Assembly: GCF_000014785.1 (NCBI RefSeq)
Contig: NC_008340.1
Coordinates: 2,730,001-2,762,000 of the forward strand
Length of the DNA stretch: 32,000 bases
Direction: 5' to 3'
DNA from: Alkalilimnicola ehrlichii MLHE-1
GTDB lineage: Bacteria; Pseudomonadota; Gammaproteobacteria; Nitrococcales; Halorhodospiraceae
Positions within the stretch are counted from its first letter, which is position 1. The number at the start of each line of letters is the position of its first letter. The translations under genes and the position numbers were made by a program. A model generated the notes under the pieces. The model did not search any database. It saw nothing but the letters and a program-made list of their open reading frames with translations, and was not told the DNA's origin. Below are positions 4,302 to 32,000 of this stretch, in pieces.

Positions 4302-4317
4302 TCACCCATTTGGGTGA
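4302..4317. promoter_or_regulatory. Perfect palindrome TCACCCA-TT-TGGGTGA, a candidate operator
   Basis: 7+7 bp inverted repeat with a 2-nt spacer, too tight to form a hairpin loop. It lies about 30 nt after the LuxR stop and about 93 nt upstream of the lipoprotein ATG. A second inverted repeat, CACGGCA-N10-TGCCGTG, lies at 4354-4377. Confidence 0.3.
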
Positions 4318-4409
4318 TGCCGCCGGGTCGCCGGGCCCGCTATAAGCCCGGGACACGGCAACAGCGGGTGTGCCGTGGACCATCCGTGGTTGAATCGAGG
4401 GGAGAGACC

Positions 4410-10384: not shown

Positions 10385-10629
10385 TTGCCGTCACAGGCAC
10401 CCCGACATGGACTGCCGCGCCCCTGCGGGGGCGCGAATCAGCGAGGAACGGGGCACCCCCGTCATCGCGAGGGCCGAAGGCCCGTGGCGATCCAGAGGGG
10501 TAGACTGCCGCGTCGGCTTCGCCTCCTCGCAGTGACGGTGGGGGTGTCCCTCCCCGCCGTGACGGTGGGGCCCACCACCCCCGTCATCGCGAGGAGCGCA
10601 GCGACGCGGCGATCCAGGCGGCTGCAGAG
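10385..10629. repeat. REP/BIME-like palindromic repeat cluster 1
   Basis: Contains the units CCCCCGTCATCGCGAGGGCCGAAGGCCCGTGGCGATCCA, its convergent partner ...GACTGCCGCGTCGGCTTCGCCTCCTCGCAGTGACGGTGGGGG, and GTCATCGCGAGGAGCGCAGCGACGCGGCGATCCA. It lies between the convergent tesA and rdgC. Confidence 0.9.
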
Positions 10630-11654: not shown

Positions 11655-12350
11655 AGCGGGACATTATGCGAGTCGCGCTGCGACGGGACAACCAGGCGTG
11701 GCAATCCAGGCCGGCGGGTGGATCGCCACGTCGCTGCGCTCCTCGCGATGACGGGGGTGGCGCCCCCACCGTCACTGCGAGCGCGGCCCCACCCCCACCG
11801 TCACTGCGAGGAGGCGAAGCCGACGCGGCAGTCTACCGCCCTGGATCGCCACGGGCCTGCGGCCCTCTTGATGAACATGGCCAGACGCTGCGGGCGCCCC
11901 CTACCCTCACTGCGAGCGCGGACCCACCCCCACCGTCACTGCGAGGAGGCGAAGCCGACGTGGCAGTCTACCGCCCTGGATCGCCGCGGGCCTTCGGCCC
12001 TCGCGATGACGGGTGGGGCGCCCCCTCGCGATGACGACCAAAAACCCGCGGCGCTCGCCATGGCAGCTCCGCTGTTCTTCCCTGATTCGGGCCCGCGCAG
12101 CGGGGAGGGGGGCTCGCGATGACCGGGAGTGCCCCGTTCCTCGTTGATTCGGGCCCGCGCAGCGGGAGGGGGGCTCGCGATGACCGGGAGTGCCCCGTTC
12201 CTCGTTGATTCGGGCCCGCGCAGCGGGAGGGGGGCTCGCGATGACGGGGTGGTGACCCCCACCGTCACTGCGAGCCCCGAAGGGGCGCGGCAGTCCAGGC
12301 CGGCGGGTGGATCGCCGCGTCGCTGCGCTCGCGATGACGGGGGTTGGAGG
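11655..12350. repeat. REP/BIME-like repeat cluster 2 (about 0.7 kb, includes a 61-62 bp tandem triplet at 12084-12245)
   Basis: Multiple copies of CCTCGCGATGAC / GTCACTGCGAGG units in both orientations, for example TGGATCGCCACGTCGCTGCGCTCCTCGCGATGACGGGGG. The unit GATTCGGGCCCGCGCAGCGGGAGGGGGGCTCGCGATGACCGGGAGTGCCCCGTTCCTCGTT occurs three times. Confidence 0.9.
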
Positions 12351-12358
12351 CTTGCATT

Positions 12359-12850
12359 TCAGTTCAACCACCAGATGGCGCCATTGAGCACTGCGGCGAA
12401 GGCCACCCACAGCGCGTAAGGCACGAACAGGATGGCGGCCCAGCGATCCACCGGTGCGAATTGCCGGATGCAGGCCAGCAACACCAGAAAGAGCAGACCG
12501 ATCCAGACCAGCGCCGCTCCCGGCGCCTGCAGGCCGAAGAAGATCACCGACCAGCACAGGTTCATCACCAGCTGCAGCCCCCAGAGCGCCAGCACGCCCC
12601 GCCCCTGCACCCAGCCCAGCACCCGCCACAGACGCCAGCCGGCGATGGCAATGGCCAGGTAGAGCGCCGTCCAGACCGGACCGAAGAGCCAGTCCGGGGG
12701 GTTGAACGGTGGCTTGGCCAGGTCGCGATACCAATCGTCCAGGCCGGTGGCGGTCACCGCCCCACCCAGGGAGGAGACCACCAGCACCAGGAACAGGAAG
12801 GCCAGCAGCATCGGGAAGTGGTGCCGGGGATTGGTCTGCATTGGGGTCAT
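12359..12850 (-). CDS. tspO: TspO/MBR family tryptophan-rich sensory protein
   Basis: The internal ATG at 12850 gives MTPMQTNPRHHFPMLLAFLFLVLVVSSLGG. Motifs WYRDLAKPPFNPPDWLFGPVWTALYLAIAIAGWRLW and FVPYALWVAFAAVLNGAIWWLN are diagnostic TspO motifs. There are 5 TM helices in about 163 aa. Confidence 0.9.
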   Translation of the reverse strand: MTPMQTNPRHHFPMLLAFLFLVLVVSSLGGAVTATGLDDWYRDLAKPPFNPPDWLFGPVWTALYLAIAIAGWRLWRVLGWVQGRGVLALWGLQLVMNLCWSVIFFGLQAPGAALVWIGLLFLVLLACIRQFAPVDRWAAILFVPYALWVAFAAVLNGAIWWLN

Positions 12851-12892
12851 AGTCCGTTGCTTCAGGATTGCCTCGAAAATACCAGACCGGGG

Positions 12893-13506
12893 CGTGGATC
12901 GCCGCGTCGCTGCGAAAGCCGACCCGTCCCCCACCGTCATTGCGAGGGCCGCAGGCCCCGTGGTGACCCAGGGCGGTAGACTGCCACGTCGGCTTCGCCT
13001 CCTCGCAGTGACGGTGGGGGCGACCTGCCGCTTCCGGCTCAGTCAAGTTCTTCAAGAGGGCCGAAGGCTTTCCCCCGTCGTCGCGAGGGCCGAAGGCCCG
13101 TGGCGATCCAGGGCGGTAGACTGCCACGTCGGCTTCGCCTCCTCGCAGTGACGGTGGGGGCGACCTGCCGCTTCCGGCTCAGTCAAGTTCTTCAAGAGGG
13201 CCGAAGGCTTTCCCCCGTCGTCGCGAGGGCCGAAGGCCCGTGGCGATCCAGGGCGGTAGACTGCCACGTCGCTTCGCTCCTCGCAGTAACGGTGGGGGCC
13301 ACTACCACCCCGTCATCGCGAGGAGCGCAGCGACGCGGCGATCCAGACGCCGGCATGGACTGCCACGCCCCTTCGGGGCTCGCAGTGACGGTGGGGATGG
13401 GACCGCGCTCGCAGTGACGGTGGGGATGGGACCGCGCTCGCAGTGACGGCGGGGGTGGCCCGCCCCTTGGCTGCACAGTCCAGTTCTTCAAGAGCCGCGC
13501 GATGAC
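12893..13506. repeat. REP/BIME-like repeat cluster 3 (includes a perfect 140-bp tandem duplication at 12971-13250 and a 31-bp tandem at about 13378-13445)
   Basis: 12971-13110 and 13111-13250 are identical by direct reading. A diverged partial third copy follows from 13251. The same unit types as the other clusters are present. It lies between the divergent tspO and fumA. Confidence 0.95.
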
Positions 13507-13556
13507 AGCCCAAGGCCCGCCAACACCATGTTGCCACGGACAAAACCCGCCGGCTG

Positions 13557-13565
13557 TGGTATAAC
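13557..13565 (+). promoter_or_regulatory. Candidate extended -10 element (TGgTATAAC) for the fumarase gene
   Basis: TGGTATAAC lies about 59 nt upstream of the ATG at 13624. No good -35 is present at 17 bp (TTGCCA lies 23 nt upstream). Confidence 0.3.
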
Positions 13566-13623
13566 CTGCCGCGCGAACACCCGACGCACAGACGACTATA
13601 AAGACACGCCCCGGAGGACGCCC

Positions 13624-15141
13624 ATGGCTACCATCCGCCAGGATGACTTCATCCAGAGCATCGCCGATGCGCTGCAGTATATCTCCTACTACCACCCCAA
13701 GGACTTCATCGACGCCGCCCACGAGGCCTGGGAGCGGGAGGAATCGCCGGCCGCCAAGGATGCCCTGGCGCAGATCCTGATCAACTCGCGCATGTGCGCC
13801 GAGGGCCGCCGGCCCATCTGCCAGGATACCGGCATCGTCACGGTGATCCTCAAGATCGGCATGAACGTCCAGTGGGACGCCGAGATGAGTGTGGAGGACA
13901 TGGTCAACGAGGGCGTGCGCCGGGCCTACAACCTGCCCGACAACAAGCTGCGCGCCTCCATCCTGGCCGACCCGGCCGGCGAGCGGAAGAACACCGGCGA
14001 CAACACCCCGGCGGTGATCCACATGAGCCTGGTACCGGGGGACACCGTGGACGTGCAGGTGGCGGCCAAGGGGGGCGGCTCCGAGGCCAAGACCAAGTTC
14101 GCCATGCTCAACCCCTCCGACTCCATCGTCGACTGGGTACTGGAACAGGTGCCGAAGATGGGCGCCGGCTGGTGCCCGCCGGGCATCCTGGGCATCGGCA
14201 TCGGCGGTACCGCGGACAAGGCGATGCTGATGGCCAAGGAGGCCTGCATGGAGTCCATCGACATCCACGAGCTGAAGGCCCGCGGCCCACGGAACACCGC
14301 CGAGGAACTGCGTCTGGAGCTGTTCGACAAGGTCAACGAGCTGGGCATCGGCGCCCAGGGCCTGGGCGGGCTGACCACGGTGCTGGATATCAAGATCCGC
14401 GACTACCCCACCCACGCGGCCAACAAGCCCGTGGCGATGATCCCCAACTGCGCGGCCACCCGCCACGCCCACTTCGTGCTGGACGGCTCCGGGGTGGCGG
14501 ACCTGCCGGCGCCCAAGCTGGAGGATTGGCCGCAGGTGGCCCGCGAGGGCGGCGGCGACGTCAAGCGGGTCAACCTCGACGAGGTGACCACCGAGGAGGC
14601 GCGAAGCTGGAAGCCGGGTGACACCCTGCTGGTCTCCGGCACCATCCTCACCGGCCGCGATGCCGCCCACAAGCGCATGACCGACATGCTGAGCCGGGGA
14701 GAAGAGCTGCCGGTGGACCTGAAGGGCAAGTTCATCTACTACGTGGGCCCGGTGGACCCGGTGCGCGACGAGCCCGTGGGCCCGGCCGGCCCCACCACCG
14801 CCACCCGGATGGACAAGTTCACCGATCAGATGCTGGCCGAGACCGGCCTGATGGGCATGATCGGCAAGGCCGAGCGCGGCCCCGAGGCGGTGGCGGCCAT
14901 CCGTAAGCACGGCGCGGTCTACCTGATCGCCGTGGGCGGTGCCGCCTACCTGGTCTCCAAGGCCATCCGCAAGGCCCGGGTGGTGGCCTTCGAGGACCTG
15001 GGCATGGAGGCCATCCACGAATTTGAGGTGGAGGACATGCCGGTGACGGTGGCGGTGGACAGCCGTGGCGAATCGGTGCACGAAGCCGGCCCCCGCGAGT
15101 GGCAGGCCCGGATCAAGGGCATCCCCGTCACCGAGGCCTGA
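13624..15141 (+). CDS. fumA: Class I (Fe-S dependent) fumarate hydratase
   Basis: The ATG at 13624 is preceded by GGAGGA. MATIRQDDFIQSIADALQYISYYHPKDFI..., the CQDTGIV cluster-ligand motif, GGGSEAKTKF, PPGILGIGIGGTADKA, and the C-terminal beta-domain GTILTGRDAAHKRM...YYVGP. 505 aa, matching the single-polypeptide class I enzymes. Confidence 0.95.
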   Translation: MATIRQDDFIQSIADALQYISYYHPKDFIDAAHEAWEREESPAAKDALAQILINSRMCAEGRRPICQDTGIVTVILKIGMNVQWDAEMSVEDMVNEGVRRAYNLPDNKLRASILADPAGERKNTGDNTPAVIHMSLVPGDTVDVQVAAKGGGSEAKTKFAMLNPSDSIVDWVLEQVPKMGAGWCPPGILGIGIGGTADKAMLMAKEACMESIDIHELKARGPRNTAEELRLELFDKVNELGIGAQGLGGLTTVLDIKIRDYPTHAANKPVAMIPNCAATRHAHFVLDGSGVADLPAPKLEDWPQVAREGGGDVKRVNLDEVTTEEARSWKPGDTLLVSGTILTGRDAAHKRMTDMLSRGEELPVDLKGKFIYYVGPVDPVRDEPVGPAGPTTATRMDKFTDQMLAETGLMGMIGKAERGPEAVAAIRKHGAVYLIAVGGAAYLVSKAIRKARVVAFEDLGMEAIHEFEVEDMPVTVAVDSRGESVHEAGPREWQARIKGIPVTEA

Positions 15142-15146
15142 GTGCG

Positions 15147-15171
15147 TGCCGCCCGGCACGACCGGGCGGCA
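15147..15171 (+). terminator. Hairpin just after the fumarase stop (candidate terminator, weak U-tract)
   Basis: TGCCGCCCGG-cacga-CCGGGCGGCA, a perfect 10-bp stem starting 6 nt after the stop. It is followed by TCCGCCTTCC. Confidence 0.45.
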
Positions 15172-16095: not shown

Positions 16096-16290
16096 ACCGT
16101 CACCGCGAGGTTTGGAGCGCCGCGGCGATCCACACACCGGCATGGACTGCCGCGCCCCCTGCGGGGGCTCGCAGTGACGTGGTGGGGGCATTCCACCGTC
16201 ATCGCGAGGGCCGGAGGCCCGTGGCGATCCAGGGCGGTGGACTGCCGCGTCGCTTCGCTCCTCGCAGTGACGGTGGGGGCGGACTGCCGG
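16096..16290. repeat. REP/BIME-like repeat cluster 4
   Basis: GTCACCGCGAGG...GGCGATCCACACACCGGCATGGACTGCCGCGCCCCCTGCGGGGGCTCGCAGTGAC and GTCATCGCGAGGGCCGGAGGCCCGTGGCGATCCAGGGCGGTGGACTGCCGCGTCGCTTCGCTCCTCGCAGTGACGGTGGGGG. It lies between convergent genes. Confidence 0.9.
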
Positions 16291-19511: not shown

Positions 19512-19890
19512 CACCGTCATCGCGAGCCCCCCTCCCCGCTGCGCGGGCCCGAATCAACGAGGAACGGGGCACCCCCGTCATTGCCAGGGCCGAAGGCTTT
19601 CCCCCCGTCATCGCGAGGGCCGAAGGCCCGTGGCGATCCAGGGCTGTAGACTGCCGCGTCGGCTTCGCCTCCTCGCAGTGACGGTGGGGGGGTAGCCCTT
19701 CCCGCCGTGACGGTGGGGGCGCCACCCCGTCATCGCGAGGAGCGCAGCGACGTGGCGATCCACACGCCGGCATGGACTGCCGCGCCCCTTCGGGGCTCGC
19801 AGTGACGGTGGGGCGGGTCGCCGCTTGCCGTGACGGTGGGGCGGGCCGCCGGCCGCCGTGACGGTGGGGCGGGTCGCCGTGACGGAGTGG
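19512..19890. repeat. REP/BIME-like repeat cluster 5
   Basis: GTCATCGCGAGCCCCCCTCCCCGCTGCGCGGGCCCGAATCAACGAGGAACGGGGCACCCCCGTCATTGCC..., the full composite GTCATCGCGAGGGCCGAAGGCCCGTGGCGATCCAGGGCTGTAGACTGCCGCGTCGGCTTCGCCTCCTCGCAGTGACGGTGGGGG, and then 3-4 short CCGTGACGGTGGGGCGGG reiterations. Confidence 0.9.
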
Positions 19891-21760: not shown

Positions 21761-22525
21761 TCAGGCCAGGTGATGGCCGGGCAGGCCTTCCAAGTGCTGG
21801 CGCACCTCATCCCAGAGGGCCTCGTAGGCACGGGCCGCCGGGCTGGTGGGGGCGAAGTCGCAGACCGGCCGTTGGTGCAGGCCCATCTGCTCAACCTGGG
21901 TGCTGTAGGGGATGGCCGGGCCAAGCAGCCGCTTCATGTTCAATGGCGGCTGCTCCACCAGTTGCCGGTGCATTCCCCTCCGGCGGTCCACCATTGACCA
22001 GAAGGGCACCAGCTTGCGCCGCGGAAGCTCGTGCTGTTTGAAAAACGCGCGCAGCTGTGCCCAGGCCCGCAGCGACAACGGTGTCGGCACCAGCGGCACC
22101 AGCACCCGGCTGGCGGCACGGAAGACGTTCTCCGACAGGCGGGAGAAGCTGGGCGGGCAGTCGAGCACCGCAAGGGCGTAGCGCTCCGAGAGCGGTTCCA
22201 GAAGCTGGTGGAGCCGGTCGTCCCCGCCCTTCTCGTCCAGGTGGAGATCCAGGTGGCGGTAGCGCTCGTCCGCTGGCAGCAGCTGCAGGTTGTCCCAGGC
22301 GGTGTCGCACAGCTCGCGGCCGATGGGGCGCTTGCCGCTGAGCAGCTTGCGGGGCTTGCCTTGGAGCCCCTCCTCCACCCCCAGGTACCAGCTCGCCGCT
22401 CCCTGCGCGTCCAGGTCCCAGAACACCGTGGGCAGCCCGTCGCGGGCGGCGAGCCAGGCCAGGTTGACGGCGGCGGCGGTCTTGCCGACGCCCCCCTTCA
22501 GGTTGTAAAAGGCGATAACTTCCAA
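21761..22525 (-). CDS. Orphan ParA/MinD-family P-loop ATPase
   Basis: Deviant Walker A with the signature lysine: IAFYNLKGGVGKTAAAVNLA. Walker A' FWDLDAQGAAS. Walker B ALAVLDCPPS. A TTG start at 22525 is inferred from GGAGGA 6 nt upstream (ggaggatctTTGgaagttatc). The longer track ORF (to 22621) overlaps the CHAD gene and adds a Gly/Arg/Pro-rich N-terminus. Confidence 0.85.
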   Translation of the reverse strand: MEVIAFYNLKGGVGKTAAAVNLAWLAARDGLPTVFWDLDAQGAASWYLGVEEGLQGKPRKLLSGKRPIGRELCDTAWDNLQLLPADERYRHLDLHLDEKGGDDRLHQLLEPLSERYALAVLDCPPSFSRLSENVFRAASRVLVPLVPTPLSLRAWAQLRAFFKQHELPRRKLVPFWSMVDRRRGMHRQLVEQPPLNMKRLLGPAIPYSTQVEQMGLHQRPVCDFAPTSPAARAYEALWDEVRQHLEGLPGHHLA

Positions 22526-22572
22526 AGATCCTCCAGGGCACACACCCCCGCAAGGGGGCGCTACCGAATGGT

Positions 22573-23496
22573 TCAGACGGTGCCGCCCTCGTGGCCCAGC
22601 TCCTCGCGCCAGACCTCCCACCAGGCCCGGAGACGGCGCGACAGGGCGCCCGGGCGGTCGGCGTACAGGCGCCGGCCCAGGCGCAGGGCGGGCAGGCGCA
22701 GCTCGTCGTGGCGTTGGGCGATCATGCCGCGGATCAGGCGCCGGTGGACCTCGCCGACATGACCGGGTTCGTCCACCAGGAGCTGGTCCAATACCTGTAG
22801 ATCGTGATCGTCACCGAGCAGATCGGAGAGGGTCTTCAGTTCCGATTGCAGGGTCTTCATCAGCGGTGACCAGAGCAGACGCAGCACCTGCACATGGTAC
22901 CAGTAGTCCTTCACCCGCTTGCGCCATTCGTGCCAGGCCTCCGGGTCGTCGCTGAACCGGCTGGCCTGGAATGCCTGACCGCCGGCCTGATAACAGCGCT
23001 GGAAACCGGCCAGAAAGGCATCCGCCCCCTCGGCCTTCGATGGCCAGTCGGCGATGCGTTCGCGGGCGCCGTGCAGCTCGTCGACCAGGTTCGCCATCTG
23101 CCCGGCCAGGTCCCCCTCCTCCGCGGCCAGTCGGTCGCGGCGAACCTCAAGGGCCCGCTGACAGGCCCCCAGCGCCTCCTGTTGGGTGGGCAGCCGGAAC
23201 CGCTCGCTCAGGGCATCCACCGTTTCCAGCACTGCCTGGGCGTCGCGATAGCCGGACAGGGCGCGGGCCTGGTCCCGATACCAGGCGTTCTCCGCCTGCG
23301 CCCGCTTGCGCCCCAGCGTCGGGCGGAATAGCCGGAGCAGGGCGCGCAGCTCCTTGAAGCGCTTGCGCGCCTGGTGCACCGCCTCGTGGGGATCGCCACC
23401 GCCCTGCAACACCTCAATGGCCGCATCCACCCGGCCCCGGGCCAGCTTGCGGATGTCCGCAGCGAGCGCCCTGCGTCCTTCCAGCCGGAATGCCAT
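22573..23496 (-). CDS. CHAD-domain protein
   Basis: 307 aa and all-helical. VHQARKRFKELRALLRLFRP...YRDAQV and later WHEWRKRVKDYWYHVQVL...LGDDHDLQVL are the conserved His/Arg-rich CHAD repeats. Confidence 0.85.
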   Translation of the reverse strand: MAFRLEGRRALAADIRKLARGRVDAAIEVLQGGGDPHEAVHQARKRFKELRALLRLFRPTLGRKRAQAENAWYRDQARALSGYRDAQAVLETVDALSERFRLPTQQEALGACQRALEVRRDRLAAEEGDLAGQMANLVDELHGARERIADWPSKAEGADAFLAGFQRCYQAGGQAFQASRFSDDPEAWHEWRKRVKDYWYHVQVLRLLWSPLMKTLQSELKTLSDLLGDDHDLQVLDQLLVDEPGHVGEVHRRLIRGMIAQRHDELRLPALRLGRRLYADRPGALSRRLRAWWEVWREELGHEGGTV

Positions 23497-23530
23497 GTCC
23501 CTCTCCAGTGTCTTCCTGACCTCAGGGTAC

Positions 23531-23562
23531 CTTATATAATAATGGAATTAATCATAGTCCAA
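23531..23562 (-). promoter_or_regulatory. Candidate sigma70 promoter for the CHAD/ParA-like genes in a local AT-rich patch
   Basis: On the minus strand: TTGGAC (23562-23557), 18-nt spacer, TATATA(A) (23538-23533). It lies about 35 nt upstream of the CHAD ATG, which has a GGAGAGGG Shine-Dalgarno. This is the only AT-rich stretch in that intergenic region. Confidence 0.35.
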
Positions 23563-23611
23563 CACGGGGTTTTGCTGCAGAACGGCAACCGGGCCGGCCG
23601 CCACGGAGCGG

Positions 23612-25567
23612 TCAACCCAACGCGGCCTCGGCCGCCTCCAACGCCTCCAGGGCCTCCATCCAGTCCGCCTCCAAGGCCTCCTGGCGGGCCTTGAGCACCC
23701 CCTGCCGGTGCAGCAGTTCGGTCAGGCGGTCCTTGCCCGCTGCCTCGTACAAAGCGGGCTCACCCAGGGCCCTCTCCACGTCAGCCAGCTCCCCGCTCAG
23801 TTCATCCAGCGCCTTCTCCAACTGCTCGGCCTTGCGACGCAACGGGCGAAGCTGCTCGCGTTGCCGCGCCTGGGCGCGGCGCTGGGCCTTGCGCGATTCA
23901 GCCGTGTGCGCCGGGGAGGACCCGTGCCGCGGTTCGTCGCCATCAGGCGCGGGCCCGGTCCCGGCAGAGGCGACGCCGTTGACGGCCTTCTGCGCCTCGC
24001 GCCATTCGAGGAACCACTGGCGGTAGGTCTCCAGGTCGCCGTCCAGCGGGCGGACGCGGCCCTCGGCCACCAGGTAGTACTCATCGCAGGTGGTGGTGAG
24101 CAGGTGACGGTCGTGGGAGACGAGGACCACGGCGCCTTCGTATTCCTGCAAGGCGACGGTCAGGGCGTGGCGCATCTCCAGGTCCAGGTGGTTGGTGGGC
24201 TCGTCCAACAGCAACAGGTTGGGCCGCTGCCAGACCAGCAGTGCCAGCACCAGGCGGGCCTTTTCACCACCGCTGAAGGGGGCCACGGCACGGTCCGCAT
24301 CGTCGCCGGAGAAGCCGAAACCGCCGATAAAGTTGCGCAGGGTCTGTTCCTGCGCCTTCGGGGCCAGGCGCTGCAGGTGCAGCAGCGGCGAGGCCTGGCC
24401 ATCCAGTTGCTCCAGTTGATGCTGGGCGAAGTAGCCCACGGCCAGCCCCTGACTGCCGGTGATCTGGCCCGCCTGGGGTTTCAACTCGCCGGCCAGGGCG
24501 CGGATGAAGGTGGACTTGCCGGCCCCGTTCGGTCCCAGCAGGCCCATCCGCTCCCCCGGGCGCAGCGAGAGCTGAATCCGGCGCAGGACCGGGTCACCGC
24601 CATAGCCCAAATCCACCCGGTCGAGCACCAGCAGCGGGTTGGCGGCCCGGGGCGGGTCGGGGAAGTGGAACTCGAAGGGCGCGTCCACGTGCGCCGGGGC
24701 GATGCGCTCCATCCGCTCCAGCGCCTTGATACGGCTCTGCGCCGCCTTGGCCTTGTTGGCCTGGGCGCGGAAGCGGTCGATGAATTTGTGCAGATGGGCA
24801 ATCTCCGCCTGCTGCTTCTCGTACTGGGCCTGCTGTTGCGCCAGGCGCTCGGCGCGGCGCTTTTCGAAGTCGCTGTAGCCGCCCGTATAGTGCACCAGCC
24901 GCCGGCCATCGAAGTGGACGATGCCCTGGACCACGGTGTCGAGGAAGTCGCGGTCGTGGGAGATGAGCAGCAGCGCCCCCGGGTACTGGCAGAGCCACTG
25001 CTCCAGCCAGAGCACAGCCTCCAGGTCCAGGTGGTTGGTGGGCTCGTCCAACAGCAGCAGGTCGGAGGGCTGGATGAGCGCGCGGGCCAGGTTGAGGCGC
25101 ATGCGCCAGCCGCCGGAGAAATCGCTCACCGGCCGGGCCCGCCCGGCGGCGTCAAAACCCAGCCCCTCCAGCAGGGTCTCCGCCCGGGAGGCGGCGGTGT
25201 AGCCGTCGATGGCGTCCAGGCGGGCGTGCAGTTGCCCCATGGCCTCGCCGTCGCCCGCCGCTTCCGCCTCGGCCAGCCGCGCCTGGAGTGCTCGCAGCTC
25301 CAGGTGGCCATCCAGCACGTAGTCCAGGGCGCTGCTGGCCAGCGCCGGGGTCTCCTGGACCACATGGGCGATACGCCAATCACGGGGGATGCCCACCTCG
25401 CCGGCGTCCGGGCCGATCTCGCCCTGCAGCAGGGCGAACAGGGTGCTCTTGCCGCAGCCGTTGGGACCGACCAGGCCGAGGCGCTGCCCCGGGTAGACGG
25501 TGAGACTGGCCTGGTGGAGGAGTTCCTCGGGGCCGCGGGAAAGGGTGATGTCCTTGAGGGTGATCAT
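23612..25567 (-). CDS. yheS: ABC-F family ATPase YheS (tandem ABC domains, coiled-coil C-terminal tail)
   Basis: The internal ATG at 25567 gives MITLKDITLSRG. GPNGCGKSTLF, VSDFSGGWRMRLNLARAL, LLLLDEPTNHLD, the linker RIKALERMERIAPAHVD, the second domain GPNGAGKSTFI, FSGGEKARLVLALLVWQRPNLLLLDEPTNHLD, and VSHDRHLL. It is collinear with my recollection of E. coli YheS throughout. Confidence 0.9.
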   Translation of the reverse strand: MITLKDITLSRGPEELLHQASLTVYPGQRLGLVGPNGCGKSTLFALLQGEIGPDAGEVGIPRDWRIAHVVQETPALASSALDYVLDGHLELRALQARLAEAEAAGDGEAMGQLHARLDAIDGYTAASRAETLLEGLGFDAAGRARPVSDFSGGWRMRLNLARALIQPSDLLLLDEPTNHLDLEAVLWLEQWLCQYPGALLLISHDRDFLDTVVQGIVHFDGRRLVHYTGGYSDFEKRRAERLAQQQAQYEKQQAEIAHLHKFIDRFRAQANKAKAAQSRIKALERMERIAPAHVDAPFEFHFPDPPRAANPLLVLDRVDLGYGGDPVLRRIQLSLRPGERMGLLGPNGAGKSTFIRALAGELKPQAGQITGSQGLAVGYFAQHQLEQLDGQASPLLHLQRLAPKAQEQTLRNFIGGFGFSGDDADRAVAPFSGGEKARLVLALLVWQRPNLLLLDEPTNHLDLEMRHALTVALQEYEGAVVLVSHDRHLLTTTCDEYYLVAEGRVRPLDGDLETYRQWFLEWREAQKAVNGVASAGTGPAPDGDEPRHGSSPAHTAESRKAQRRAQARQREQLRPLRRKAEQLEKALDELSGELADVERALGEPALYEAAGKDRLTELLHRQGVLKARQEALEADWMEALEALEAAEAALG

Positions 25568-25912
25568 GGCTGGGATTCTACCAGCCGATGGTGCCAAGGC
25601 GTCAGGGCGATGCCCCAGGCGGATGCGCACGCAAACCCCGTCGCGGCGACCCTGTGCCACAGCCCTTGGGGTTCACTCACGCACCAATATACGCCACCAA
25701 ACGCAGCGAACACCAAACCATTGCTGCCCCGTGCAACCCCTATATTTGGAATGCACACAATACGTCGCCACCCCCCGGAACAGGGCTGCGCAATACATTG
25801 ATTTTATGGAGGTGGCATTATCCTGGAGCAGAATGATCAGGAATAACCAGGTCCTACTAGCTCGGTCTTTTTTACCATTTCGTAACAGAAAAGACATCGT
25901 TTCTAACCACCC

Positions 25913-25928
25913 GTTACCGCACGGTAAC
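25913..25928. promoter_or_regulatory. Perfect palindrome GTTACCG-CA-CGGTAAC, a candidate upstream activator site
   Basis: 7+7 bp inverted repeat centred about 64 nt upstream of the -24 GG of the putative sigma54 promoter. A weaker TTAC-N6-GTAA sharing the half-site lies at 25872-25885. Confidence 0.3.
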
Positions 25929-25982
25929 AACGGCCCGACCGGGCGGTGCCCAAGCGACTACTTAGGCAGGGCTTTTTCTGTT

Positions 25983-25998
25983 TGGCATTGCATTTGCT
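25983..25998 (+). promoter_or_regulatory. Putative sigma54 (-24/-12) promoter TGGCAT-N5-TTGCT
   Basis: The sequence TGGCATtgcatTTGCTT has GG and GC separated exactly as in the consensus TGGCAC-N5-TTGCW. It lies about 46 nt upstream of the ATG at 26044, which has an AGGAG Shine-Dalgarno at 26031-26035. It sits in an unusually AT-rich 380-bp intergenic region. Confidence 0.6.
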
Positions 25999-26043
25999 TA
26001 AACCCCTCACCGAAAACCGCCGATTCGGCTAGGAGATCCGGTA

Positions 26044-27153
26044 ATGAGTAGCGATAGCACAGTGATTCCAAGAGATACCAATAGCGGCTGGGCCGCGGAA
26101 CGGGCTCGCCGCGGCGGCAGGCAGCGCCACTCCAAGTGGTGGCTGCTCGCCGTCATCGTCTCAGTGACGCTAAGCCTTCCGCTCAGCGGCTACCTGGCGC
26201 CGGCGGCCGCCAGCCAAGGCGCGGATCTGGCGGGGTTCTATCCTGAGAGCCAGATCAGCTACAGCTGGTCGTCGCTACGCGAAGGGCCCCTCACGATCTT
26301 CGCCCTACTGGCCATCGCCGGGTCGATACTCGTCTTTCTCGCGTTCCATCTGTTCGCCGGCAAGGTAAGGATTGACGGCGGCCGGTCCGGCACCACCGTG
26401 CCGAGGTGGAGCAGGTTCGAGCGCCTTCTGCACTGGCTGCTCGCCGGCTCGTTCATCGTGCTGGCGATCACCGGCCTATCGCTGTTCTTCGGTCGGTACG
26501 CGCTGATGCCCTTGCTGGGGGAGAGGGGTTTCTCCACCTACGCCTCGGGGGCGATCTGGATTCATGAAACCATCGGGCTGGTATTCGTGGCCCTCCTGGT
26601 CGCCGCCATCCTGCAGTGGATAAAGGGCAACCTTTTCCGGAGCTACGACTGGCAATGGTTCAAGCAGGGCGGCGGCTATATCGGCGATCGCAACACCCAC
26701 CCGCCGGCAGGGAAGGCGAACGGCGGCGAAAAGCTCTACTTCTGGCTCGGCATCGTTAGCATGGGGTCGGTCACAGCGATCACCGGTCTCGTACTCTACT
26801 TCACCACTTGGACCGGATCGGAGGGCTTGGTCGCCTGGTCGTTGATTTTCCATGTGCTCGGCGCCGCAGGATTCATCGCCCTGGCGATCGGCCATGTCTA
26901 CCTGGGTGCCATCGGCAATGAAGGGACGCTGGAGGGCATGGTGAGCGGCCGGGTGGACTGCAACTGGGCGAAACAGCACCACAACATCTGGTACGAAGAG
27001 ATCCTCCAGGACGGCGTGCAGCCGGAGCCCGCGAGCACGTCTGCGGCAGACGCCTCCGTGCCGAGCGCAAAGAGTTCGAAGTCCACGGCAACCGACGCCG
27101 CGTCATTGACGATTCGGACCGACGATGCGCCGGCGCGTCGCCCTTTGTCTTGA
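26044..27153 (+). CDS. FdnI-type (formate-dehydrogenase-gamma-like, PF01292-type) di-haem cytochrome b membrane subunit with an N-terminal extension
   Basis: The core aligns with my recollection of E. coli FdnI. RFERLLHWLLAGSFIVLAITGL, IWIHETIGLVF, GKANGGEKLYFWLGIVSMGSVTAITGLVLYF, and IFHVLGAAGFIALAIGHVYLGAIGNEGTLEGMVSGRVDCNWAKQHHNIWYEEI. All four haem-ligand His positions are present. There is also a predicted signal peptide (WWLLAVIVSVTLSLPLSGYLAPAAA/SQ), one additional TM helix, and a Ser/Ala/Thr-rich tail of about 50 aa. Confidence 0.85.
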   Translation: MSSDSTVIPRDTNSGWAAERARRGGRQRHSKWWLLAVIVSVTLSLPLSGYLAPAAASQGADLAGFYPESQISYSWSSLREGPLTIFALLAIAGSILVFLAFHLFAGKVRIDGGRSGTTVPRWSRFERLLHWLLAGSFIVLAITGLSLFFGRYALMPLLGERGFSTYASGAIWIHETIGLVFVALLVAAILQWIKGNLFRSYDWQWFKQGGGYIGDRNTHPPAGKANGGEKLYFWLGIVSMGSVTAITGLVLYFTTWTGSEGLVAWSLIFHVLGAAGFIALAIGHVYLGAIGNEGTLEGMVSGRVDCNWAKQHHNIWYEEILQDGVQPEPASTSAADASVPSAKSSKSTATDAASLTIRTDDAPARRPLS

Positions 27154-27203
27154 GCCGAGCGCCCCGGGAAGTCCCCTGTGGCCGTAGGCTATTGAATGAG
27201 TTT

Positions 27204-27412
27204 GTTGCGAGCCCCCTCCCCGCTGCGCGGGCCCGAATCAACGAGGAACGGGGTACCCCTGTCATCGCGAGGGCCGAAGGCCCGTGGCGATCCAGGGCGG
27301 TAGACTGCCGCGTCGGCTTCGCCTCCTCGCAGTGACGGTGGGGGTGGGGCCCCGCTCGCAGTGACGGTGGGGGCAACCTTCCGCTTCCGGCACAGTCCAG
27401 TTCTTCAAGAGG
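27204..27412. repeat. REP/BIME-like repeat cluster 6, inside the molybdoenzyme operon
   Basis: GCGAGCCCCCTCCCCGCTGCGCGGGCCCGAATCAACGAGGAACGGGGTACCCCTGTCATCGCGAGGGCCGAAGGCCCGTGGCGATCCAGGGCGGTAGACTGCCGCGTCGGCTTCGCCTCCTCGCAGTGACGGTGGGGG..., followed by the CCGCTTCCGGCACAGTCCAGTTCTTCAAGAGG module, which ends at the Shine-Dalgarno of the next gene. Confidence 0.9.
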
Positions 27413-27423
27413 AGAGAGCACGA

Positions 27424-29904
27424 ATGAATGTACTGCAGAATAAGCTCAACAGGAGACGATTCCTGCAGGCGTCCGGGGCCGCCGGTGCGGCGGGTGTGGC
27501 AGGCCTGAATGCGATCCCAGGTATATCGACGCTGGAGGCCAGCCCTGGGACCCGGGCGCGGGCCACGTCGGATACCGTCGTCACCAAGAGCGTCTGCCAG
27601 CAGTGCTCCACTCGCTGCGGGCTCGACGTCTATACGACCAACGGCCGGGTGCATGCCATCTACGGCAATCCAGACGCTCCGTTATCCAACGGCAAGCTCT
27701 GCCCCAAAGGCCACCTGGGCCCATACATCCTTTACGATGCCGACCGCTTCAAGGGGCCGATGAAGCGCACCAATCCCAAGAAGGGCCGCAACGAAGACCC
27801 GGGCTTCGTGCCGATCTCCTGGGACGAGGCCCTGGATACGGTCGCTGCCCGCTTGACGGCGCTGCGCGAGCGGAACGAGTCGCATCGCTTCGTTGTGGCG
27901 TACGGCCGCGGCTGGGGCCCCGCCGACGCCGGCCTGTTCGGCACCTGGGGCCGGTTGTACGGCTCCTCGAGCATCGGCATCGGCCATTCGAGCATCTGCG
28001 CCGATGGCTCCAAGAAGGTCAAGCGCGCCATGGACGGCAATGACTCATACAACTCCTACGACTACGAGAATTGCAATTGCCTGCTGATCTTCGGCGCCGG
28101 CTTCCTCGAGTCTTTCCGGCCTTACAATGCCAACATGCAGATGTGGGGCAGGATGCGCAGCAAGGGCACCCGCATCACCATGGTCGATGTGCGCAACTCT
28201 GTGACCGCCGCCGCTGCCGATCGCAAGCTGATCGTGTCTCCCGGCACTGACGGTGCGATCGCTTTGGCCATCGCCCACGTCATCCTCACCGAAGGCCTGT
28301 GGGACAGGCCCTTCGTTGGCGACTTCACCCGGTCCCGACTGCGATTCGAGACCGGCAAGCCGATCGATCCCGACACCTTCTCGGAAAACTGGGTGAAGGA
28401 CCTTCCGGCTTGGTGGAACACAACGCTGAAGGACGCCACTCCTGCCTGGGCCGAGGGCATCACCGGCGTGCCGGCGGAGAAGATCGTCGCCACGGCGAAG
28501 GAGTTCGGCAGCACCCGGCCGGCCATAGCGGTGTTCGAGCGCGGTCCCACGGCGCACACCAACGGCGCCTACAACGGCATGGCCATTCACGCCCTGAACG
28601 CGCTGGTCGGCTCAATGTTCGCCAAGGGTGGCCTGAGCTACCAGATGGGCTCGTCCGCCGGCAGCCTGCCGATCAACCCCGATGACTACATGGACGACTA
28701 CGCCCGTGAGATGGAGGGCAAATACCCGCGCATCGATATGGCGCGGACCGACGCCTGGCCGATGACCTCCAACATGATCCAGGACATCGCCAAGAACCAT
28801 CTGACCGGCTCACCGTACAAGATGGACACGATCATGTTCTATACGGTGGGTCCGATCTATTCCGGCCCCGACTGCACGGTGTGGGAAGAGGCACTCCAGG
28901 ACGTGTTCGTGATCGACACCTCGCCCTCGCCGCAGGAGAGTGCGCAGTTCGCCGACCTGATCCTGCCCGATCACACCTACCTGGAACGACTCGAAGTCGC
29001 CAACACTTACCCGTTCCAGGGCTATCCGATGTCGATGATCCGCGAGCCGGCGGTAAAACCGCTTTACGACACGATGCAGTTCGGCAACATCATGATCGAA
29101 CTTGGCAAGCGGATGCCCGGCCCGATGGCCGATTACTACCAGCAGGTGGGCAGTGTCGAGAACGTGGTGGCCGCATTCGCCGCGGGCTTTGAAAACGACC
29201 CCGGCGATAACGGCGTTAATGACCTGGCCAGCTTCAAAGAGAAGGGTGTCTGGTACAAGACCCCCTATTTGTGGCGCCAAATCGACGGCGAGTTCTACGA
29301 ATGGGACGGCCACCGCTACAGCATTCGGATGAGCGAGGACGATGTTAAGGCGAAACTGCTGAAGACCCCATCCGGGAAGTTCGAGTTCCAGCCCGCTTGG
29401 TTCACCAACGAGAAACACGCCGCGCATATCCAGAAACATCTCGGTATTCCGCGCGATATGATCGGCTTCCCCCATTACGTCGAACCGCAATACCAGGGCG
29501 GCGGCGACCTGCACCTGATCAGCCCGAAGCTACCGCTCTCCGCTGAGGGGCGCTCCGCCAACCTGCCGCATACCCACGCGGTATGGCAACCCACGCAGGG
29601 TGGCACCGACACGGTGTACATGGAGATTCACCCACAGGCCGCCGCCGCCCGCGGCATCAAGGACCGCGACCGGGTCCGGATAAGCTCCTCGGTGGGCGCC
29701 ATCGAGTGCTTCGCCAGCGTCTCTGGCGGGGTGCCGAAGGACACGGTAGTGCTGCCGCTGGCCCACGGCCACTGGGGCTCCGGCCGTTGGGCCCAGAACA
29801 AGGGGGTTTCCGGCAGTGTCAACGAAGTCATTCCCAACGTCGTCGAGCCGGTTTCCGGGCTCGTGGCCTTCAGCGCCGCCAAGGTCTTCGTTGAGAAGGT
29901 TTGA
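27424..29904 (+). CDS. Tat-exported molybdopterin (Mo/W-bisPGD) oxidoreductase catalytic subunit, Psr/Phs/Arr-like clade with Cys metal ligand. Substrate unknown.
   Basis: The ATG at 27424 follows AGGAGA. Twin-arginine signal NRRRFLQASGAAGAAGVAG. FS0 motif C-x2-C-x3-C-x27-C (CQQCSTRCGLDV...NGKLCPKGH). RTNPKKGRNEDPGFVPISWDEAL. Probable Mo-ligand region IGHSSICADGSKK. SPGTDGAIALAIAHVIL. 826 aa with no in-frame stop, so there is no selenocysteine. Confidence 0.9.
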   Translation: MNVLQNKLNRRRFLQASGAAGAAGVAGLNAIPGISTLEASPGTRARATSDTVVTKSVCQQCSTRCGLDVYTTNGRVHAIYGNPDAPLSNGKLCPKGHLGPYILYDADRFKGPMKRTNPKKGRNEDPGFVPISWDEALDTVAARLTALRERNESHRFVVAYGRGWGPADAGLFGTWGRLYGSSSIGIGHSSICADGSKKVKRAMDGNDSYNSYDYENCNCLLIFGAGFLESFRPYNANMQMWGRMRSKGTRITMVDVRNSVTAAAADRKLIVSPGTDGAIALAIAHVILTEGLWDRPFVGDFTRSRLRFETGKPIDPDTFSENWVKDLPAWWNTTLKDATPAWAEGITGVPAEKIVATAKEFGSTRPAIAVFERGPTAHTNGAYNGMAIHALNALVGSMFAKGGLSYQMGSSAGSLPINPDDYMDDYAREMEGKYPRIDMARTDAWPMTSNMIQDIAKNHLTGSPYKMDTIMFYTVGPIYSGPDCTVWEEALQDVFVIDTSPSPQESAQFADLILPDHTYLERLEVANTYPFQGYPMSMIREPAVKPLYDTMQFGNIMIELGKRMPGPMADYYQQVGSVENVVAAFAAGFENDPGDNGVNDLASFKEKGVWYKTPYLWRQIDGEFYEWDGHRYSIRMSEDDVKAKLLKTPSGKFEFQPAWFTNEKHAAHIQKHLGIPRDMIGFPHYVEPQYQGGGDLHLISPKLPLSAEGRSANLPHTHAVWQPTQGGTDTVYMEIHPQAAAARGIKDRDRVRISSSVGAIECFASVSGGVPKDTVVLPLAHGHWGSGRWAQNKGVSGSVNEVIPNVVEPVSGLVAFSAAKVFVEKV

Positions 29905-29928
29905 TCGAATTAGCAGGAGTAAATTGCG

Positions 29929-30675
29929 ATGACTAAGTGGGGCATGGTTATAGACTTGGAGAAATGCACCGGCTGCCAGGCCTGCACGATCGCCTGTGGC
30001 ATGGAGAACAACCTTCTGCCGGGCGAGCACTGGCAGGACGTTCTCTATTACTCGGAAGGCCAACTACCGGACCACGAATTGAAGTGGCTGCCGAGGCCCT
30101 GCATGCAATGTGAAGATGCCACCTGCGTCACGGTCTGCCCGACGGGGGCAACCTATAAGGATGCGGAGGCGGGCGGCGTGGTTTTCATCGACTGGGACCG
30201 CTGCATCGGCTGCAAATATTGCATCGTGGCCTGCCCCTATGGTGTGCGCTTCTCCACGGCCGAGCTCAAAACGCAGTCGCCGGACATGCGCGAGGTCTTT
30301 CCCAGCGGCGACGGCCACACCTGGAATCCGCCCTGGAGGGCGCCGGATTCCCGGGACAACCCCAAACGCGGGATCGGCATCCCGCCGAAGAATGTGGTGA
30401 GCAAGTGCACCTTTTGTCATCACCGCACCTCCACCGCCCCCGCCGACACGGCGGATCTCGATCCGAGCAACCCGGACCTGCGCGAGCATACGCCGGCCTG
30501 TGTGGTGACCTGCGCCCCCGGGGCCCGTTACTTTGGCGACCTCAACAACCCGAACAGCCAGGTGTCCAAGCTCATCGCAGAGCACAACGGGCAACCGGTG
30601 CTGAGTCACCTGAAGAACAAGCCGCAGGTGTATTACCTCGGCCGCAAGCGCGCTTCGCCGTCCCGGAGCAGTTGA
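29929..30675 (+). CDS. Four-cluster [4Fe-4S] ferredoxin electron-transfer subunit (PsrB/DmsB/FdnH-like), no TM anchor
   Basis: AGGAG Shine-Dalgarno. Four Cys groups: CTGCQACTIAC, CMQCEDATCVTVCP, CIGCKYCIVACP, and CTFCHHR...ACVVTCAP. There is an insertion of about 40 aa before group IV. The C-terminus (GRKRASPSRSS) is hydrophilic. Confidence 0.9.
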   Translation: MTKWGMVIDLEKCTGCQACTIACGMENNLLPGEHWQDVLYYSEGQLPDHELKWLPRPCMQCEDATCVTVCPTGATYKDAEAGGVVFIDWDRCIGCKYCIVACPYGVRFSTAELKTQSPDMREVFPSGDGHTWNPPWRAPDSRDNPKRGIGIPPKNVVSKCTFCHHRTSTAPADTADLDPSNPDLREHTPACVVTCAPGARYFGDLNNPNSQVSKLIAEHNGQPVLSHLKNKPQVYYLGRKRASPSRSS

Positions 30676-30676
30676 G

Positions 30677-31510
30677 GTGGGGGTGGATGATACGTCGGGC
30701 CTGTCGTTGCAGGGCGAACTGCTCGCCTGCCTTGGGCAGGCGATGCAACCTCCGCGCTCGGATGCGTTCTTCAACGCGTTGCGGGATGGGTTGGTGGACG
30801 ATATCGCCGACCTATGCGGGGCACTCGGGGCGGAGTCCGTAGCCGCCGATCTGCCACCGTTGCGTTGCGCGTTGGGCGAGGTGGAGGATCGGGAGTCGTT
30901 GCTATTGGCCTACAGCGTGTTGTTTCTCGCGCCCCCGCCCAAGGTGCGCCTCAACCTGGTCCGATTGATGGATGGGGCTTCCAGTGGTGCCGGTCTCGGC
31001 TACCTGGACGAAATGCTGGCCAGGCACCAGCTCAACCTCCGCTCCGAACACCGGGAACTGCCGGATCACCTCACGGTGGTTCTGGAGTTGGCCGCCTGCC
31101 TGATCAGCCGGGGTGAGCAAGGCAATGACCAGGCAGAACGAGACGCCAAGGCCTTGCTGCAACAAATGGTGGCACCGGCAGCCCGACACCTTGCCGAAAC
31201 GGCGGCCGACGTGGAGCAGGCACATGGCCTGCCCAAGGTCTACTCACGGCTGCTGGCGCTGATCGGCACGACCGGCCAGGACCCGGATGGCTGTCTGCTT
31301 CCCGGCACCCGTTCGGTTGCCGGGGAGGCCACCGGTGCGAGCAAATCCGCGCCGGACACCGGCCCAGCCATGGCCGCCTGCGCGCGCTGCGGGACACCTT
31401 TCGTGAGCCTGCGCGACCAGGCGGTGCTGATCGCGCATTTACAGGAGGCGGGAGCGCCGGCCGATCATCTGCACGTCTGTCCCGACTGCCGCACGGGGCC
31501 CGGCGGCTGA
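30677..31510 (+). CDS. TorD/DmsD-family redox-enzyme maturation chaperone with a C-terminal CxxC...CxxC zinc-ribbon-like extension
   Basis: A GTG start 1 nt after the upstream stop (another GTG lies at 30683). LLLAYSVLFLAPPP...YLDEMLARHQLNL....ELPDHLTVVLELAACL is the TorD-family core. The tail is CARCGTPFVSLRDQAVLIAHLQEAGAPADHLHVCPDCR. Confidence 0.75.
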   Translation: MGVDDTSGLSLQGELLACLGQAMQPPRSDAFFNALRDGLVDDIADLCGALGAESVAADLPPLRCALGEVEDRESLLLAYSVLFLAPPPKVRLNLVRLMDGASSGAGLGYLDEMLARHQLNLRSEHRELPDHLTVVLELAACLISRGEQGNDQAERDAKALLQQMVAPAARHLAETAADVEQAHGLPKVYSRLLALIGTTGQDPDGCLLPGTRSVAGEATGASKSAPDTGPAMAACARCGTPFVSLRDQAVLIAHLQEAGAPADHLHVCPDCRTGPGG

Positions 31511-31583: not shown

Positions 31584-32000
31584 TCACCGGGACTCCACCG
31601 GCAGGCAGCCCTGTGCGGCCAGGCGCAGGCAGGCGTCCACCACCTCCGGGTCGTAGAGCCTGCCGCGCTTGGCGCGCAGTTCGTCCAGCGCCGCGGCCAG
31701 CCCCAGGGCGGGCCGGTAGGGGCGGTGGGAGGAGATGGCCTCGACCACGTCGGCTACGGCCAGAATGCGTGCTTCCAGCAGGATGGCCTCCCCCCGCAGG
31801 CCGTCCGGGTAACCGGAGCCGTCCAGCCGCTCGTGGTGTTGGCGAATGATCTCCGCCACCGGCCAGGGGAACTCGATCCCCTTGATGATCTCGTAGCCGA
31901 CGGCCGGATGGGTCTTGATCATCTCGAACTCGAGGTCACTCAGCCGCCCCGGGCGCGAGAGGATCTCCACGGGGATGGCGACCTTGCCGATGTCGTGGAT
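31584..32000 (-). CDS. HD-GYP domain protein, C-terminal part (continues beyond the right edge)
   Basis: The reverse complement of the window end reads IHDIGKVAIPVEILSRPGRLSDLEFEMIKTHPAVGYEIIKGIEFPWPVAEIIRQHHERLDGSGYPDGL....I.LEARILAVADVVEA. This gives the HDxGK, HHERxDGxGYP and ADxxxA motifs of HD-GYP phosphodiesterases. Confidence 0.85.
   Translation of the reverse strand: MHDIGKVAIPVEILSRPGRLSDLEFEMIKTHPAVGYEIIKGIEFPWPVAEIIRQHHERLDGSGYPDGLRGEAILLEARILAVADVVEAISSHRPYRPALGLAAALDELRAKRGRLYDPEVVDACLRLAAQGCLPVESR

Follow-up and report, generated by a model that had tools for sequence, protein, structure and literature searches.

In Alkalilimnicola ehrlichii MLHE-1, we analysed a stretch of 32,000 nucleotides (contig NC_008340.1, positions 2,730,001 to 2,762,000 of the forward strand; hereafter the window, with positions counted from its first letter) in which a four-gene operon, including a molybdopterin subunit of the ArxA clade, is preceded by a sigma-54 -24/-12 element and two palindromic boxes. 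The region from 25871 to 25998 probably serves a second arx-like operon as its control region, one of the ArxR/sigma-54 type whose activator would act in trans from the canonical arxXSR locus. That this region holds a real sigma-54 promoter together with an upstream activator site of the ArxR/AioR family is very probable from its sequence, and it is rather likely that the activator is ArxR itself.

The sigma-54 element and its two palindromic boxes

The elements of the control region, and the gene that borders it on the far side, are the following.

25871-25886, unstranded: distal ArxR-type box TTTACCATTTCGTAAC, a 10/12 match to GTTACC-N4-GGTAAC, centred at about -130.5 from the predicted start
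25913-25928, unstranded: proximal ArxR-type box GTTACCGCACGGTAAC, a 12/12 match to GTTACC-N4-GGTAAC, centred at about -88.5
25983-25998, plus strand: sigma-54 -24/-12 element TGGCAT-TGCAT-TTGCT (TGGCAT at 25983-88, spacer TGCAT, TTGCT at 25994-98)
26009, plus strand: predicted transcription start, placed from the -12 GC by the sigma-54 convention
26031-26035, plus strand: ribosome-binding site AGGAG, 8 nt 5' of the ATG
23612-25567, minus strand: divergent neighbour, an ABC-F ATPase (YheS/Uup-like), which borders the intergenic region and lies outside the system

The first-pass annotation of this DNA had reported a TGGCAT-N5-TTGCT element at 25983-25998 with exact spacing, and the element is indeed located there, with the GG at 25984-85 and the GC at 25996-97 in exact -24/-12 register and with a single conservative mismatch to TGGCAC-N5-TTGCW. 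It is the sole match to TGGCAY-N5-TTGCW on either strand of the 32 kb, where dinucleotide shuffles give 0.04. The element lies on the plus strand, in non-coding DNA, and is oriented toward the cytochrome b gene that opens the operon. The end of TTGCT is followed by 45 nt before the ATG at 26044, in keeping with the roughly 46 nt given earlier to the first gene of the molybdoenzyme module, and a start at 26009 would leave a predicted 5' untranslated region of ~35 nt.

Upstream of this element, TTAC-N6-GTAA occurs at 25872-85 and at 25914-27 and nowhere else in the window (0.03 expected), and none of 100 shuffles held two or more such sites. Likewise, the only window sites that score at least 10/12 against the box consensus are these two. 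Both boxes fall within one intergenic region of 476 bp (25568-26043), with a centre-to-centre distance of 42 bp, and the proximal box stands ~63-64 bp from the -24 GG. The earlier description of a palindrome about 64 nt upstream, with a related TTAC-N6-GTAA about 40 nt further on, therefore matches what is found (64 bp from the proximal centre to the -24 GG, and 42 bp between centres). The spacing of the boxes corresponds to four helical turns and therefore puts both on one face of the DNA. A chance origin of the motifs is excluded.

One detail of the earlier description has to be modified. The proximal box had been called a perfect palindrome; it is an inverted repeat, but with a CA at its centre that does not pair with itself, the 16-mer as a whole falls short of a perfect palindrome, and GTTACCGCACGGTAAC consists of 7-bp arms around a 2-bp spacer. 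It is better written as GTTACC-N4-GGTAAC, which it matches at 12 of 12 positions. Written as GTT-ACCGCACGGT-AAC, the proximal box fits the consensus GTT-N10-AAC of the arsenite regulator AioR, with equal length and the same outer triplets; the distal box TTTACCATTTCGTAAC lacks the first G alone. The AioR consensus comes with the DNase I footprint GTTCGGATTTCCGAAC (PMC5335332), and AioR works with RpoN at aioBA (PMC7533571).

The G+C content of the promoter region is 0.554, the intergenic region contains no further meaningful repeats, no intrinsic terminator was detected in 25400-26200, and an Rfam search of the window matched zero families.

The same architecture at other arx loci

Is this arrangement particular to the window? 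A genome scan returned 60 arx-like loci. We scanned for the complete architecture, which was defined as one box scoring at least 10/12, a partner scoring at least 8/12 at a distance of 36-49 bp and a -24/-12 element 30-160 bp downstream. The controls were 0.37 Mb of non-arx molybdoenzyme and formate dehydrogenase loci and 0.73 Mb around generic genes for bacterial enhancer-binding proteins (bEBPs), 1.1 Mb in all. The positives were the window and 15 of 61 arx-like loci, and neither the 0.37 Mb nor the 0.73 Mb of control sequence gave a single one. In the 15 loci, the box spacing was always 41-43 bp and the box-to-promoter distance was 40-130 bp, and these loci span Rhodocyclaceae, Azoarcus, Thioalkalivibrio, Halorhodospira, Tepidimonas, an alphaproteobacterium and Alkalispirillum. 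The geometry had been read at first as that of a bEBP upstream activator site, and the recurrence of the same layout at these loci, and not in the controls, supports that reading. The box centres at about -88.5 and -130.5 also fall in the range of roughly 80-150 bp upstream that is usual for such sites.

The perfect form GTTACC-N4-GGTAAC was found 22 times in 0.99 Mb of arx-like loci and not once in the non-arx or the generic-bEBP loci, and a 16-mer identical to the proximal box of the window is present upstream of the arx genes in one of the loci (L045). Furthermore, in many arx-like loci, a -24/-12 element lies ~1.2-1.4 kb before the molybdopterin gene, in front of arxB2; in the window, it lies at -1378.

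A close parallel is the canonical arx locus of Alkalispirillum mobile (L083), a member of the sister genus, whose genes are arranged as arxR-arxS-arxX / arxB2-arxA-arxB-arxC(NrfD)-arxD. Here, two GTTACC-N4-GGTAAC boxes (8505 and 8548), at the spacing of 42-43 bp that this locus and the window share, are followed by the sigma-54 promoter TGGCAAGGCAATTGCT at 8629, and the distance from box to -24 is 73 bp, compared with 63 bp in the window. This two-box promoter is one base off tggcaaggctattgct, the putative RpoN promoter that Badilla et al. (2018) reported upstream of A. ehrlichii's own arx genes (PMC5908839).

Does the box go together with an activator gene? For this comparison, we took those arx-like loci, 36 in number, whose upstream sequence extends for 5 kb or more and counted a box when it scored at least 11/12 within 2.5 kb upstream of the molybdopterin gene. 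The box was present in 21 of the 22 loci with a linked bEBP containing the GAFTGA motif and in none of the 14 without one (Fisher p = 4e-9, with related loci counted as independent). Box and ArxR-type activator gene therefore go together, and the window alone has boxes with no bEBP linked to them.

Could the -24/-12 match then be a coincidence, with the palindromes serving an ordinary dimeric repressor or activator at a sigma-70 promoter, possibly that of the divergent ABC-F gene? A lone -24/-12 match would not be decisive, given that sites with at most one mismatch to TGGCAC-N5-TTGCW occur roughly once per 20-40 kb in the related loci. On the other hand, no sigma-70-like promoter was detected in 25400-26200, the site is correctly oriented and close in front of a start codon, the boxes co-occur with genes for AAA+ bEBPs, and the combined architecture recurs at 15 arx loci and is absent from 1.1 Mb of controls. 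Such a coincidence is highly improbable.

Whether the boxes and the promoter are also held in a fixed helical register is less clear. Across loci, the box-to-promoter distances are weakly phased (p ~0.01 for a 10.5-bp period, and 0.06 on unique distances, with the outcome depending on the period chosen), and the distance in the window falls at the mean phase of the loci; helical phasing is only suggestive. A second assembly of this region (CP183314.1, L171) is 100% identical to window positions 22044-31153 and is, as a consequence, uninformative for footprinting.

The survey also revealed variation among arx loci. Six loci, of Halomonas/Vreelandella (L005, L009, L011, L012 and L039) and of Marinospirillum (L028), and eight others lack both a bEBP linked within 10 kb and an ArxR box upstream of the molybdopterin gene, and a substantial subset of arx operons must therefore be under some other form of control. 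Five betaproteobacterial loci (L017, L018, L049, L050 and L053) have a second sigma-54-like element 36-85 bp directly upstream of the molybdopterin gene, in addition to or in place of the one before arxB2, and three of these (L017, L018 and L053) have extra perfect boxes near position 9050.

A candidate activator encoded elsewhere in the genome

What protein could act at these boxes? The first-pass annotation had stated that no NtrC-family activator is encoded in the window, and Pfam, motif and tblastn searches all came back empty: there was no Sigma54_activat domain among the large open reading frames (ORFs) of the window, no GAFTGA-containing ORF of at least 200 aa in the window and not a single match when bEBPs were sought there by tblastn with ArxR and ArxS. 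With no bEBP gene in the window, the activator has to act in trans.

One regulator gene does lie close by, convergent with the end of the operon.

31584-32000, minus strand: 3' part of the gene for a response regulator with an HD-GYP (cyclic di-GMP phosphodiesterase) output domain

A Tll0287-like histidine kinase that belongs to this HD-GYP regulator sits just past the window edge (for the part beyond the window, see L001 4199-7527). We rejected this adjacent pair as the activator; its response regulator has no AAA+ or DNA-binding domain.

A better candidate is found at another locus. The protein P0242 of A. ehrlichii MLHE-1 is a sigma-54-dependent response regulator of 444 aa, made up of a receiver, a Sigma54_activat and an HTH_8 domain; it shares 81% identity with the ArxR encoded at the canonical arx locus of Alkalispirillum, and its gene is preceded by the C-terminus of ArxS. 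The recognition helix region of P0242, LGISRKNLWEKMKKLG, is also found in the bEBPs at arx loci, and nearly all of these loci bear boxes. By sequence, P0242 is the ArxR of this organism, encoded at a separate place in its genome. Its Sigma54_activat domain, together with the putative RpoN promoter published for the arx operon, lends indirect support to the presence of rpoN in this genome. Metagenomes scanned with P0242 gave no match closer than 60% identity, and the loci from that scan served solely as negative controls. It had been proposed earlier that the regulator acts in trans or lies elsewhere on the acquired segment. The first half of this proposal stands, now with P0242 as the candidate, and the second half is not needed, as a regulator is available from the canonical arxXSR locus of this organism. 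In the usual arrangement, the regulator gene adjoins its target operon, and it is in this respect that the present locus is atypical.

Taken together with what is known of related systems, these data suggest the following mechanism. Arsenite in the periplasm would be sensed by ArxX, which binds it with a dissociation constant of 311 nM (Badilla et al., 2018, PMC5908839), and the signal would pass to the kinase ArxS and, by phosphorylation, to ArxR, a response regulator of the NtrC/AtoC family. ArxR dimers would bind both boxes on the same face of the DNA, and the phosphorylated protein would form an AAA+ oligomer that loops to the closed complex of the sigma-54 holoenzyme, where ATP hydrolysis would open the promoter for transcription from near 26009. 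ArxR would have to be supplied in trans by the canonical arxXSR-arxB2ABCD locus elsewhere in the genome, because the window encodes no such activator.

The scheme has a textbook counterpart in NtrC at glnAp2 of E. coli, where two dimer sites on the same DNA face lie ~100-140 bp upstream of the -24/-12 promoter, and phosphorylation drives oligomerisation, DNA looping and ATP-dependent formation of the open complex. The two systems differ in the sequence of the boxes, which is unrelated, in the box spacing (three turns at glnAp2, four in the window) and in the signal (nitrogen status compared with arsenite). A nearer relative is the aioBA system of Agrobacterium tumefaciens, Herminiimonas arsenicoxydans and Rhizobium sp. 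NT-26, in which a sigma-54 promoter is controlled by RpoN and by the AtoC/NtrC-family regulator of an X-S-R arsenite-sensing module (AioXSR), and in which a 16-bp inverted repeat fits GTT-N10-AAC (PMC5335332, PMC7533571). However, the half-site is GTTACC in the window and GTTCGG in the AioR footprint, and tandem boxes are the rule at arx loci, whereas a single AioR site has been described at aioBA (PMC5335332, PMC7533571). The enzymes differ as well, as ArxA groups with the Arr/Psr-type enzymes and not with Aio, and the enzyme reported for A. ehrlichii is Arx rather than Aio.

Might the activator be a different protein, that is, an unlinked ArxR/AioR-like paralogue acting at a real sigma-54 promoter and activator site but answering to another signal, such as the true substrate of the enzyme? 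The molybdopterin subunit is just 55-64% identical to any ArxA and has a different membrane partner, so the enzyme could have another substrate and a sensor of its own, and paralogues of ArxR do exist, with two ArxR-like bEBPs in each of two loci (L017 and L054). Nonetheless, P0242 is the only A. ehrlichii protein among the best 120 ArxR homologues, the proximal box matches the arx-locus consensus perfectly and is identical to a box in L045, and the box occurs only alongside ArxR-type genes. We consider a separate paralogue unlikely, and control by ArxR remains the reading that we prefer.

Several points weigh against this assignment. The ArxR site put forward by Badilla et al. (2018), gtaacaattcaagc, is a different one (PMC5908839), and by 2019 no experiment had established what ArxRS does (PMC6683785). 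At 10/12, the distal box falls short of a full match, and the co-occurrence test treats related loci as independent. No clear site for integration host factor was found between the boxes and the -24 element, the best being a match with two mismatches. We infer the recognition of GTTACC-N4-GGTAAC by the ArxR of A. ehrlichii from the sister genus and from the conservation of the helix. A second arrA-like gene of MLHE-1 was reportedly dispensable for arsenite oxidation in the work of Zargar et al. (2010); this gene, mlg_2426, is presumably the molybdopterin gene of the window, and our literature search on it returned nothing relevant. If the gene were also not induced by arsenite, the model of ArxR acting in trans would be weakened.

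As for the published site, gtaacaattcaagc has only a GTAAC half-site in common with the palindromic box. From the comparison across loci, the tandem palindrome appears to be the better-supported operator, and the published ArxR operator may have been mis-delimited.

The operon and its possible place in arsenic metabolism

The operon downstream of the promoter consists of four genes, which are listed here with a repeat copy that lies among them.

26044-27153, plus strand: gene 1, di-haem cytochrome b of the formate dehydrogenase gamma (FdnI) type, 369 aa (Pfam Ni_hydr_CYTB, 101.9 bits; TIGR01583, 157 bits against a cut-off of 115.85)
27219-27374, plus strand: copy of an element resembling repetitive extragenic palindromes (REP-like), within the 270 bp that separate the cytochrome b gene from the molybdopterin gene and not part of the promoter
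27424-29904, plus strand: ArxA-clade molybdopterin subunit, 826 aa from the ATG at 27424 (ORF open from a GTG at 27361), with a twin-arginine (Tat) signal and a GRGWG motif
29929-30675, plus strand: ArxB-like 4Fe-4S subunit, 248 aa, 60-68% identical to ArxB
30677-31510, plus strand: ArxD-like chaperone of the NarJ/TorD family, 32% identical to Alkalispirillum ArxD (E = 1e-28)

The best curated match of the molybdopterin subunit is ArrA, at 436 bits, far under the cut-off of 1600. A database search returned hundreds of homologues at 55-64% identity, the best at ~63-64%, from Halomonas, Marinospirillum, Thioalkalivibrio, Halorhodospira, Ectothiorhodospira, Azoarcus, Sulfuricella, Alkalispirillum and others, and it is in these taxa that arx (anaerobic arsenite oxidase) is known to occur (PMC6549141). 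In a neighbour-joining tree, the subunit falls within the bacterial ArxA clade as a separate lineage, with ~60-64% identity to both sub-clades. Furthermore, GRGWG is found in the window subunit and in all the ArxA sequences, compared with RGRY in ArrA-like outgroups of 32-35% identity. GRGWG is reportedly a motif of the active-site region of ArxA, an assignment ascribed to Zargar et al. (2012).

The canonical arx operon and the operon of the window are alike in that the promoter stands before one gene that precedes the ArxA-type molybdopterin subunit and in that ArxB- and ArxD-like genes come after it; arx-like loci have the gene order A, B, a gene of ~1.3 kb and D. They differ in the first gene, which is the multi-cluster ferredoxin ArxB2 in the canonical operon and the formate dehydrogenase gamma-type cytochrome b in the window. 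In addition, the canonical locus has an NrfD-type ArxC and an adjacent arxXSR, whereas the window has neither and its regulator is unlinked, and the molybdopterin subunit of the window is a separate lineage with ~60% identity to other ArxA. Searches of the window by tblastn found no trace of ArxB2, ArxC, ArxX, ArxS or ArxR. The genes arxABC are conserved in all arx genomes (PMC6549141); by that definition, the operon of the window, which has the ArxB and ArxD partners and is without ArxC and ArxB2, is not a standard arx operon. Judged by its gene content, the operon is chimeric, with a formate dehydrogenase gamma-like cytochrome b in place of ArxB2 and ArxC. No close orthologue of this chimeric operon was found in the databases, where the best cytochrome b is 49% identical. 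The closest homologues of the cytochrome b, at 41-49% identity, are gamma subunits in true formate dehydrogenase operons, for which reason they were rejected as orthologous loci for assessing promoter conservation.

Could the control region be a relic, inherited with a duplicated or transferred arx module whose operon is now silent or otherwise expressed and whose motifs no longer function? The loss of arxB2, arxC and arxXSR, the REP-like element inserted between genes 1 and 2 and the reported dispensability for arsenite oxidation of what is presumably this molybdopterin gene would agree with such a history, as would the G+C content of the operon (26044-31510), which is 0.639, compared with 0.691 for window positions 1-25568. 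This lower value is compatible with acquisition by transfer and is not proof of it. On the other hand, all four ORFs are intact and have good ribosome-binding sites, the proximal box is a 12/12 match, the -24/-12 element has exact spacing and comes close to the consensus, and the box-to-box and box-to-promoter distances match those of functional-looking loci; 16-bp motifs that are not under selection would be expected to decay. A relic is thus distinctly unlikely.

The REP-like element, which also resembles miniature inverted-repeat transposable elements (MITEs), is dispersed in the window, with further copies at 10420-10570, 11762-12013, 12928-13455, 16262-16279 and 19522-19814. Its core 18-mer TCGCAGTGACGGTGGGGG occurs 19 times in the 32 kb, where 0 are expected. 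The copies are mostly intergenic, lie on both strands and are often arranged as two or three head to tail with a 29-bp period, and among the longer ones (85-150 bp) the mutual identity is 90-96%. We also considered a structured RNA in the DNA that separates the cytochrome b gene from the molybdopterin gene and rejected it, as the predicted fold is no better than that of shuffled sequences (z = -0.06). The 1.7 kb from 11760 to 13460 are dense with copies of the element. Two minus-strand ORFs, at 11907-13127 (406 aa) and 13192-15159 (655 aa), have no Pfam match, and a fumarase gene lies on the plus strand at 13528-15141; the 406-aa ORF may be a repeat-driven artefact and not a gene. At 4314-6473 (plus strand), a 719-aa ORF without a Pfam match adjoins a 421-aa protein with a LuxR/GerE helix-turn-helix domain (3005-4270).

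What would this regulation mean for the organism? We offer one tentative suggestion, which is possible and by no means the expected outcome: a second, structurally different arsenite-type oxidoreductase, in which an ArxA-clade subunit is combined with a formate dehydrogenase-type di-haem cytochrome b replacing ArxB2 and ArxC, may have been wired into the ArxXSR regulon by an unlinked ArxR enhancer and may provide another path, possibly a proton-motive one, that links the quinone pool to arsenite (or a related metalloid oxyanion), with tandem GTTACC-N4-GGTAAC as a general, previously mis-assigned ArxR operator.

Systems of this kind, AioR/ArxR with RpoN, are already known, and the mechanism of bEBPs with sigma-54 is textbook knowledge. 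What is new is a member of the system that is unlinked, the definition of the tandem ArxR box across genomes and the pairing of an ArxA-clade enzyme with a formate dehydrogenase-type cytochrome b. The relevance of these findings is specific to arsenic microbiology. Within that field, they name a likely regulator, ArxR, and a likely signal, arsenite, for a molybdoenzyme operon that is otherwise uncharacterised, in the bacterium where Arx was first discovered. The pair of GTTACC-N4-GGTAAC boxes, four turns apart and upstream of a -24/-12 element, would constitute a cross-genome ArxR operator that differs from the site proposed previously (PMC5908839) and that could be used to predict ArxR regulons. 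Finally, the locus would represent a case of regulatory capture, in which the arx control region was kept while its operon exchanged electron-transfer partners and the sensor genes stayed behind at a separate locus.

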